A stretch of 64,000 nt of DNA from an uncultured delta proteobacterium (GCA_963847605.1 CAWKAM010000009.1:12028-76027), one strand, 5' to 3'. Shown: positions 40,711 to 42,018, counted from the stretch's first letter. Notes: generated by a model not told the origin, from the letters alone. Numbers and translations are program-made.

Positions 40711-40786
40711 GCCGAGGTAGCTCAGTAGGTAGAGCAGCGGACTGAAAATCCGCGTGTCGGCGGTTCAACTCCGTCCCTCGGCACCA
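40711..40786 (+). tRNA. tRNA-Phe (anticodon GAA)
   Basis: 7-bp acceptor stem gccgagg/cctcggc. Anticodon loop 'cuGAAaa'. T-loop 'ggttcaa'. 3'-CCA encoded. Confidence 0.9.
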
Positions 40787-41277
40787 GTCGTAAAGCCCCC
40801 CACAAGATATCCCCAATTCTTACTATGCTCCATTTATGGTATTTTGTCCCCACTCTGTCCCCTTTTGCCCCGTAATAAGAACCAGGGTCAATACCCTGTA
40901 TCTGTAAAGCCGTCCCCTGCTGAGTATGGCACGAACTCTATGGTTTTGAAAATCCCAACTCAGTTCATTGCCTTTGCACAAAATCTATAATTATTTAATA
41001 AAAGTAATAACCACCTAAGATAGTTAGGTGTGAAAATATATTCACAACAAAAGTAAAGTATCCCTCAAAAATAACGATAATAGTCTTTAATCGATCCAAT
41101 TAAGTGAATGATGCATATGAAAGAATGTAATAATATTTAAAGGATACTCAATTAGTTGAATATAAACATTGGATTGACCATTACTCTGCATTTGAATGGC
41201 TTAGAATTTGCAGAGAATAATTGTTCTCTAACTATCATACGTTTATGAGATTAATTCTCAGGGAGGGGATTTTCCAA

Positions 41278-41919
41278 ATGAAAAAAACTTTATCACTCAT
41301 AATTGTCATGTCAATATGCACCATCTTCACTTATGCACATGCAACAATAATTACATATAATATAACTGGTGGAGTGGATTCAGAGGGGAATAAATTTTCC
41401 GGCTTCGTAGATATAAATAGCGTTGCTTACACCATACCACCATCAGTGGATACAGGGTGATATATAGAATATTATATAACTGCCTTTAAATTCATATCTT
41501 CAGATGGGATGAACTATGGAGTCTCAGGAGATTTAATCTTCAATAAAATCATCTTAGATAACGTTGGTGCTGAGGGCGCTGATGCCAACTTTTATAATAC
41601 ATACACTGTAAATGATGTTGGGTTATTAAATAGACCGGTATGGGATAGGTATGGGATAGGTATGGGATAATTATATTAGTGGTGTTTGGTTTGTTGGTAC
41701 TGAACCCACATTTAGCGGTTATTTAACCCTTCCCGATGAATCATAATAAGTACATACTGTATGAGGGGAATGAGTAATTTGCAGGATTATTGGGATCCTT
41801 CTGATAGTCAATTTCTTACACTGGATAGATGCCCGCAACCTGTCCCTGAACCATGCACCATGTTCCTTTTGGGATTTGGATTACTAGGGTTCTTAGGATT
41901 TAGAAAGAGGCCAAAATAG
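41278..41919 (+). pseudogene. Degraded PEP-CTERM domain protein
   Basis: GGGAGGGG RBS and signal peptide 'MKKTLSLIIVMSICTIFTYAHA'. An in-frame TGA falls at 41458-41460 and the reading frame continues past it to a second stop at 41668-41670. A further frameshift precedes the C-terminal 'VPEPCTMFLLGFGLLGFLGFRKR'. Confidence 0.6.
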
Positions 41920-41961
41920 CTAATAAGAAATTAAGACAAGTAACACATCAGTGTCATTTGA

Positions 41962-42018
41962 ACTGAAAATCCTTGTGTCGGCGGTTCTACTCCGCCCCTT
42001 GGCACCAGTCGTGAAGCC
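41962..42018 (+). repeat. Degenerate direct repeat of the tRNA-Phe 3' half plus 11 nt of its downstream flank
   Basis: 'actgaaaatccttgtgtcggcggttctactccgccccttggcaccagtcgtgaagcc' matches 'actgaaaatccgcgtgtcggcggttcaactccgtccctcggcaccagtcgtaaagcc' at 40740-40797. Confidence 0.7.

Follow-up and report, generated by a model that had tools for sequence, protein, structure and literature searches.

Islands that integrate into tRNA genes have been catalogued in Islander (Hudson, Lau & Williams 2015, PMC4383910; Williams 2002 cited there), where an intact tRNA gene is found at one end, a displaced 3' fragment of the same tDNA lies in direct orientation at the other, and a tyrosine integrase is present inside the interval. 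The displaced fragment starts at a known crossover sublocation, either the anticodon loop or the T-loop/acceptor junction, and the anticodon-centred attachment class comprises 2083 of 3919 islands (PMC4383910). Elements that carry attL and attR and have no integrase are also a recognised class, the cis-mobilizable elements (CIMEs), which are decayed remnants of ICEs or IMEs that have kept both attachment sites (PMC5704250). A third system relevant here is that of the PEP-CTERM proteins sorted by exosortases, which have an N-terminal signal peptide, a C-terminal VPEP motif, a hydrophobic helix, and a basic tail, and whose genes commonly adjoin polysaccharide gene clusters.

We analysed a stretch of 64,000 nt from an uncultured delta proteobacterium (GCA_963847605.1, CAWKAM010000009.1:12028-76027), hereafter the window, in which the interval 40798-41961 is very probably (roughly 0.8) the remnant of a mobile element inserted by a tyrosine integrase into the 3' half of a tRNA-Phe gene. 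The locus resembles Islander islands in its regenerated tRNA and displaced direct 3' fragment, in the start of this fragment at the anticodon stem/loop, in the existence of an empty-site allele, and in the use of the same tRNA as a hotspot in relatives. Unlike them, it has no integrase and fails the integrase filter, measures only 1.2 kb, and has a fragment that is 11% diverged. The structure adds one more case to a well-known type of feature, with no new mechanism. Its features are listed in Table 1.

Table 1. Features of the tRNA-Phe locus, numbered from the first nucleotide of the window
Feature	Coordinates	Strand	Basis
tRNA-Phe(GAA), intact, regenerated target	40711..40786	+	ARAGORN; Rfam RF00005, 72.6 bits
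Direct repeat copy 1 (attL), tRNA position 31 onward plus 11-nt trailer GTCGTAAAGCC	40741..40797	+	repeat finding; pattern search with shuffles
tRNA-proximal end of the inserted DNA	40798..40990	.	blastn, 56 nt at 89%; MAFFT and local alignments
AT-rich region (about 28-30% GC) upstream of the cargo gene	40991..41277	+	composition profile, sequence
PEP-CTERM surface-protein pseudogene, originally about 204 codons	41278..41919	+	translations; TIGR02595, PF07589
In-frame TGA nonsense codon	41458..41460	+	translation; also in L093
11-nt tandem repeat GGTATGGGATA, 3 copies	41637..41669	+	Tandem Repeats Finder; P0001; L093 alignment
5-nt insertion ATCAT, second frameshift	41740..41744	+	absent from L093; reconstruction
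Direct repeat copy 2 (attR), displaced tRNA-Phe 3' fragment plus 11-nt trailer	41962..42018	+	pattern search, repeat finding, flank comparison
Native chromosomal flank ATTCAATAAGGTTCTCATATAATCT...	42019..42045	+	L090 alignment; flank comparison

The tRNA-Phe(GAA) gene is the sole tRNA that ARAGORN reports within the window and stands intact at one end of the interval, and its sequence is identical in five related contigs (L001, L002, L006, L009, and L090). The last 46 nt of the gene, through CCA, together with 11 nt of flank, recur in direct orientation at the other end as a 57-nt repeat with a spacing of 1221 nt, in which 51 positions are identical (41 of 46 in the tRNA portion and 10 of 11 in the trailer). 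An earlier note on this DNA, made from the sequence alone, had recognized both the intact tRNA-Phe, on which ARAGORN and Rfam agree, and the repeated 3' half with its 11 nt of flank; its figure of about 85% identity has to be raised, as the aligned copies give 89%. When a 33-nt core of the repeat was searched with up to three mismatches, only these two sites were present in the window, and none was found in 100 dinucleotide-preserving shuffles. The repeat starts at tRNA position 31, which is the last base of the 5' strand of the anticodon stem and agrees with a known crossover sublocation, and its geometry exactly fits the anticodon-centred attP class (PMC4383910). Copy 2 has six substitutions, among them a T-loop change from TTCAACT to TTCTACT, which places a pyrimidine at a conserved purine position, and uncompensated, unpaired changes in stems, and because of these T-loop and stem substitutions it is non-functional; neither ARAGORN nor Rfam reports it as a tRNA.

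An unoccupied site was found on the same-species metagenome contig L090 (Ga0326728_10158892), which was retrieved via the small ORF at 42580-42882. Its tRNA-Phe is intact (a stretch of 136 nt that includes it is 98.5% identical to the window) and is directly followed by GTCGTTAAACCGTTCGATAAGGTTCTATATAATCT, the counterpart of the post-copy-2 sequence at 42008-42045 of the window, so that the empty attB junction reads as the tRNA plus GTCGT.AA.CCATTCAATAAGG. Beyond a 115-nt indel, L090 then runs parallel to window 42161-44414 (91% identity). Since the tRNA of L090 is contiguous with the flank of copy 2, the window corresponds to an L090-like chromosome plus a 1,221-bp repeat-bounded unit, and because many positions differ from the window, L090 represents another strain and no collapsed assembly. 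From these alignments, the 1,221-bp interval is a real insertion polymorphism bounded by the repeats. In addition, the flank of copy 2 is similar to tRNA-Phe trailers in the distant relatives L030-L032 and to the distal flank in the sister species L012, which fits copy 2 as a displaced native fragment; copy 2 and its flank would together be original chromosomal sequence. An exact-pattern search of JGI metagenomes for the copy-2 junction GTCGTRAAGCCATTCAATAAGG returned nothing.

The structure was also recovered independently in a Logan assembly (L093, run ERR10755942), which aligns to window 40759-42171 with zero substitutions and thereby covers the 3' part of copy 1, the entire interval, and copy 2 in full. 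Because L093 reproduces the interval, the structure is real and no assembly artefact. The 115-nt segment that L090 lacks (42046-42160) is present in both the window and L093. It contains a near-consensus sigma-70-like promoter (TTGACT-18-TATAAT, 42075-42104, 11/12), with a hairpin and T-run 3' of it at about 42148-42185, and could represent either a small insertion or a module that regulates the genes downstream.

The L090 alignment bears on the possibility that copy 2 marks the inner edge of an island, larger or in tandem, that runs rightward through the polysaccharide cluster, with a further tRNA fragment and an integrase beyond the window. The DNA to the right is indeed strain-variable, with ugd being 76% identical in L002-type strains and gene content differing, and AT-rich DNA continues to 43300. 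However, L090 joins this right-hand DNA to an intact tRNA, and therefore the DNA is unoccupied chromosomal flank, as its likeness to the trailers of distant relatives also suggests; the remaining 22 kb of the window contain no third copy of the repeat and no integrase or transposase, and the right-hand genes (ugd, glycosyltransferases, pyruvyl transferase, and a Wzt ABC transporter) are syntenic in other strains. A larger island is thus very improbable. The earlier note had left the choice between a decayed remnant and a larger island to the right: the empty site speaks for the former, and the native flank, with neither a third copy nor an integrase in the window, speaks against the latter.

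The DNA between the repeats comprises 1,164 bp and has a GC content of 35.7%, compared to 49.5% for the window. The insert is no more AT-rich than the native intergenic DNA on its right (42019-43323; 35.6% GC), and for this reason composition alone is no marker of the insert. The leftmost ~200 nt of the insert are homologous to the DNA that follows the tRNA in L001 (10402-10720; z=36), and weak homology was found to the post-tRNA DNA of L005 (z=5.6), with the motif TCCCCAC..TG.TCCCCTTTT. As this left end is common to the window, L001, and L005, a family of related elements has used the tRNA-Phe site within the species. No conserved right end of the unit could be defined. Fragments of the PEP-CTERM gene are the only ORFs in the interval, which contains no tyrosine integrase, no relaxase-sized ORF, and no transposase. 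In the whole 64-kb window, tblastn with the integrases of L012 and L005 detected no integrase or transposase homologue (best E>0.5), in agreement with the earlier reading that no integrase survives, and neither the interval nor the window contains an excisionase or a recognisable arm-type site. A promoter scan gave nothing above background, and no interpretable terminator was seen after the tRNA. Three scans of viral contigs with the tRNA-Phe att sequence and the conserved left end gave zero matches, and there is no evidence that the element is of phage nature.

An intact element at the same gene is present in the sister-species MAG L012 (CAWCTR010000006.1, 10353-16344). It is 5.9 kb long and is bounded by perfect 49-nt direct repeats whose first base is tRNA position 29; this start falls in the anticodon stem and precedes that of the window repeat by 2 nt. 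A tyrosine integrase of 472 aa (PF00589, 1.9e-28; phrog_1, 6e-53) lies beside the distal repeat, and arm-like repeats of the sequence GTTGTCAAC occur near both ends of the element. Seven small ORFs of this element have no Pfam or PHROG match. The two loci have in common the target gene, the Zn-ribbon/tRNA-Phe neighbourhood, and a repeat start that differs by 2 nt; the L012 element is unlike the window unit in its perfect repeats, intact integrase, and arm-like repeats, and the two inserts have no detectable sequence in common. Likewise, no significant similarity was found between the L012 element and the left-end family of the window, L001, and L005, and GTTGTCAAC is absent from the window at up to one mismatch. 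A look-alike of this motif in the 115-nt segment at 42046-42160 was dismissed as a chance occurrence. A homologue search with the L012 integrase yielded relatives of at most 46% identity, none of them obviously from the window species, and did not identify the enzyme responsible for the insertion in the window.

The neighbourhood of tRNA-Phe was further compared among relatives. Close to the 5' side of the tRNA lies a 95-aa Zn-ribbon gene (40386-40673) that recurs unchanged on many contigs from peat metagenomes. It is also found on the species-representative MAG 'Desulfomonilia bacterium SPRUCE 18' and precedes tRNA-Phe in relatives down to 53% protein identity. Seven same-species contigs are 95-97% identical to the window on this upstream side, and their homology stops at 40786-40795, namely at the 3' end of the tRNA or at most 9 nt past it; beyond this point the DNA differs from strain to strain. 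In six contigs (L002, L003, L004, L007, L008, and L009) about 85 nt are followed by a divergent ugd (76% identical), and in L006 189 nt are followed by DNA matching window 42233 onward. L005 has 5.7 kb at this place, in which a truncated integrase and a fragment of a DDE transposase are found, and L001 has genes for polysaccharide lyase and PEP-CTERM proteins. Directly downstream of tRNA-Phe, integrases are also present in two distant genomes, L081 and L033.

Compared to L006, the block that has been replaced in the window reaches about 42232, past the end of copy 2, and since this breakpoint lies away from the repeat, homologous recombination has also reshuffled the region. The tRNA-Phe of L005 (9943-10018) is a different allele, with a D-loop change and a compensated anticodon-stem pair (GAGGA/TCCTC instead of GCGGA/TCCGC), and is identical to that of more distant relatives. 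Because of this allele and the integrase and DDE transposase fragments downstream of it, the data suggest that the tRNA of L005 was itself replaced by recombination. Seven MAG contigs from related species (L014, L017, L021, L023, L024, L026, and L027) end 270-830 nt past tRNA-Phe or inside it, which is consistent with population heterogeneity across the whole clade; breaks of MAG contigs after this tRNA are typical of strain-variable regions.

Active recombination, seen in the L006 breakpoint and in the different tRNA allele of L005, raises the question of whether copy 2 could be the relic of an ancestral tandem duplication of tRNA-Phe, or the product of purely homologous or illegitimate recombination in which site-specific integration played no part. 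Such an origin is highly doubtful. Copy 2 has no tRNA 5' half, it begins within 2 nt of the repeat start in L012, and the difference between L090 and the window is exactly the inter-repeat interval. Moreover, no second tRNA copy was found in the 27 related loci with Zn-ribbon/tRNA-Phe synteny, with the exception of L012 and its own independent intact island, and relatives do not share a duplicate. The earlier note had proposed attachment-site-like repeats left by an integrase-mediated insertion, had suggested comparison with relatives lacking the insertion, and had named an ancestral tandem pseudogene with no insertion polymorphism as the finding that would overturn this proposal. The empty and polymorphic site of L090, the intact analogue in L012, and the 27 loci that show no such ancestral duplicate all bear the proposal out.

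The interval contains one gene, a PEP-CTERM pseudogene whose ORF fragments at 41278-41919 all read in one direction. It is preceded by a good ribosome-binding site (AGGGAGGGGA, 41260-41269) and encodes the signal peptide MKKTLSLIIVMSICTIFTYAHA and the C-terminal end VPEPCTMFLLGFGLLGFLGFRKRPK. The last fragment contains a PEP-CTERM sorting domain that scores above the curated cut-offs of both models (TIGR02595, 27.2 bits, cut-off 16; PF07589, 31.3 bits, cut-off 20.7), and no uninterrupted frame leads from the signal peptide to this domain. The decayed PEP-CTERM gene that the earlier note had placed between the repeats is therefore confirmed by the sorting-domain scores and by a frame broken by three lesions. 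A single copy of the 11-mer GGTATGGGATA keeps the frame; two copies are found in L093 (887-908) and in the protein P0001, and the window has 22 extra nt. If these 22 nt (11-mer reduced to one copy) and the 5-nt insertion are removed, a single frame of 204 codons is obtained, in which the TGA is the sole break. The only differences of L093 from the window are its two copies of the 11-mer and the absence of the 5-nt insertion. With three copies in the window and two in the otherwise identical L093, the copy number of GGTATGGGATA is polymorphic in the population, and the pseudogene is still gaining indels within an otherwise identical lineage.

The cargo is like other PEP-CTERM proteins in its N-terminal signal peptide, its C-terminal VPEP motif with hydrophobic helix and basic tail, and its position next to a polysaccharide gene cluster. 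Unlike them, it is a pseudogene whose mature region has no detectable homologue among 1.84 billion representative proteins. A word-based search with the reconstructed protein found no homologue, and an exhaustive HMMER search with the central fragment returned only the same locus in another assembly (P0001, the product of the same ORF in an allele that has the 11-mer twice) and two spurious repeat proteins. For five ORFs of the window (those of 75 and 100 aa, ugd, and the two terminal fragments, N and C, of the pseudogene), exact-protein look-ups gave no recorded match. The PEP-CTERM proteins of L001 (221 aa) and L002 (210 aa) were considered as orthologues and rejected, as they match the pseudogene in the sorting motif alone.

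With regard to classification, the unit keeps attL and attR in the manner of CIMEs, with an attR that is 89% identical and not identical to attL, and carries no integration or transfer genes. It resembles them in being bracketed by recognisable attachment sites at a position used by other elements, and differs in the lack of accretion with a second element in the window strain and in its degenerate attR. No conjugation or mobilisation gene was seen in the larger inserts of L001 and L005 that have the common left end. Judged by its arrangement, the window unit fits the CIME class in a descriptive sense, with conjugative descent and mobilisability being putative.

The existence of such integrase-less attL/attR elements (PMC5704250) lends some weight to another explanation, namely that the unit never had an integrase of its own and is a small non-autonomous cassette inserted in trans, which might still be mobilised. 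Its very small size (1,164 bp between the repeats), its single gene with a stop codon only 42 nt from attR, the conservation of its left end in the inserts of other strains at the same site, and the unchanged first 11 nt of attR (ACTGAAAATCC, anticodon loop and stem) all agree with this explanation, which we nevertheless regard as unlikely: attR has acquired six substitutions, no conserved right end can be defined, and neither the window nor the related loci compared with it contained a second copy of the unit, an attP junction, or a matching integrase. L001 and L005, which have the same left end, carry much larger and different DNA, a situation that fits deletion derivatives better. A more specific proposal is that the unit belongs to a family of integrase-less single-gene cassettes, each with the conserved tRNA-proximal end, a surface-protein gene, and a tRNA-Phe att repeat, that are shuttled in trans by island integrases into the tRNA-Phe edge of the hypervariable polysaccharide locus. 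We consider this quite improbable; if true, peatland Desulfomonilia would possess a cassette-exchange system for their exosortase substrates.

On the preferred reading, a decayed element that entered by integrase-mediated insertion, the attP of the element would have contained a tRNA-Phe copy that began at the anticodon stem/loop, reached the 3' end, and went on for about 11 nt into the trailer, and would have recombined with the chromosomal attB, the crossover being placed in the anticodon loop by analogy. The tRNA copy of the element would now complete the functional tRNA (attL), an origin that is likewise based on analogy, and the original 3' half would have been displaced 1,221 bp downstream, where as attR, free of selection, it may have gained its six substitutions. 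The circular attP junction would read …CAGTGTCATTTGA + repeat + CCCCACAAGATATCCCC…. Later, the integrase, whose former presence in this copy is suggested by analogy, and most of the element would have been lost, leaving the tRNA-proximal end and one exosortase-sorted cargo gene, which now appears to be undergoing inactivation through a nonsense codon and two small indels. Since the window contains no integrase, excisionase, or arm-type site, integrase action on this copy is something that we can only infer. Two further observations weigh against this reading. The cargo gene has only three lesions and attR is about 11% diverged, so the ages of the two look different unless the gene was long under selection; and the left-end family of L001 and L005 has no sequence tie to the L012 element.

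To the right of the tRNA, the window contains a long polysaccharide biosynthesis cluster (43324-63532), whose gene content varies between strains of the species. It encodes a UDP-glucose dehydrogenase (ugd), GT1 and GT2 glycosyltransferases, a pyruvyl transferase, an apiosidase-like hydrolase, an AMP-binding enzyme, an acyl-CoA dehydrogenase, a GNAT acetyltransferase, an O-methyltransferase, and a Wzt ABC transporter. Two small ORFs on the minus strand (42341-42568, 75 aa, hydrophobic; 42580-42882, 100 aa, with a lipoprotein-like signal …LVSC) lie in the AT-rich spacer that precedes ugd. L006 has gene calls for both of them, and the 100-aa ORF has 73-85% protein identity in L089-L092; no family match was found for either. 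Five tandem repeats of 225 nt (75 codons) are present at 54420-55616, and adjacent copies are up to 97% identical. They lie in an ORF (53695-56829, minus strand) whose 1044-aa product has divergent InlB B-repeat (Flg_new_2) domains, and they suggest a recent repeat expansion in a probable surface protein.

The main value of these findings lies in annotation, as they mark tRNA-Phe as an integration hotspot and as the left boundary of a strain-variable surface-polysaccharide region in uncultured peatland Desulfomonilia. This hotspot explains the many breaks of MAGs just past the tRNA. The locus also offers a clean, dated example of island decay, in which the integrase is gone, the displaced half of the tRNA has drifted, and the cargo is being lost via indels that still vary.
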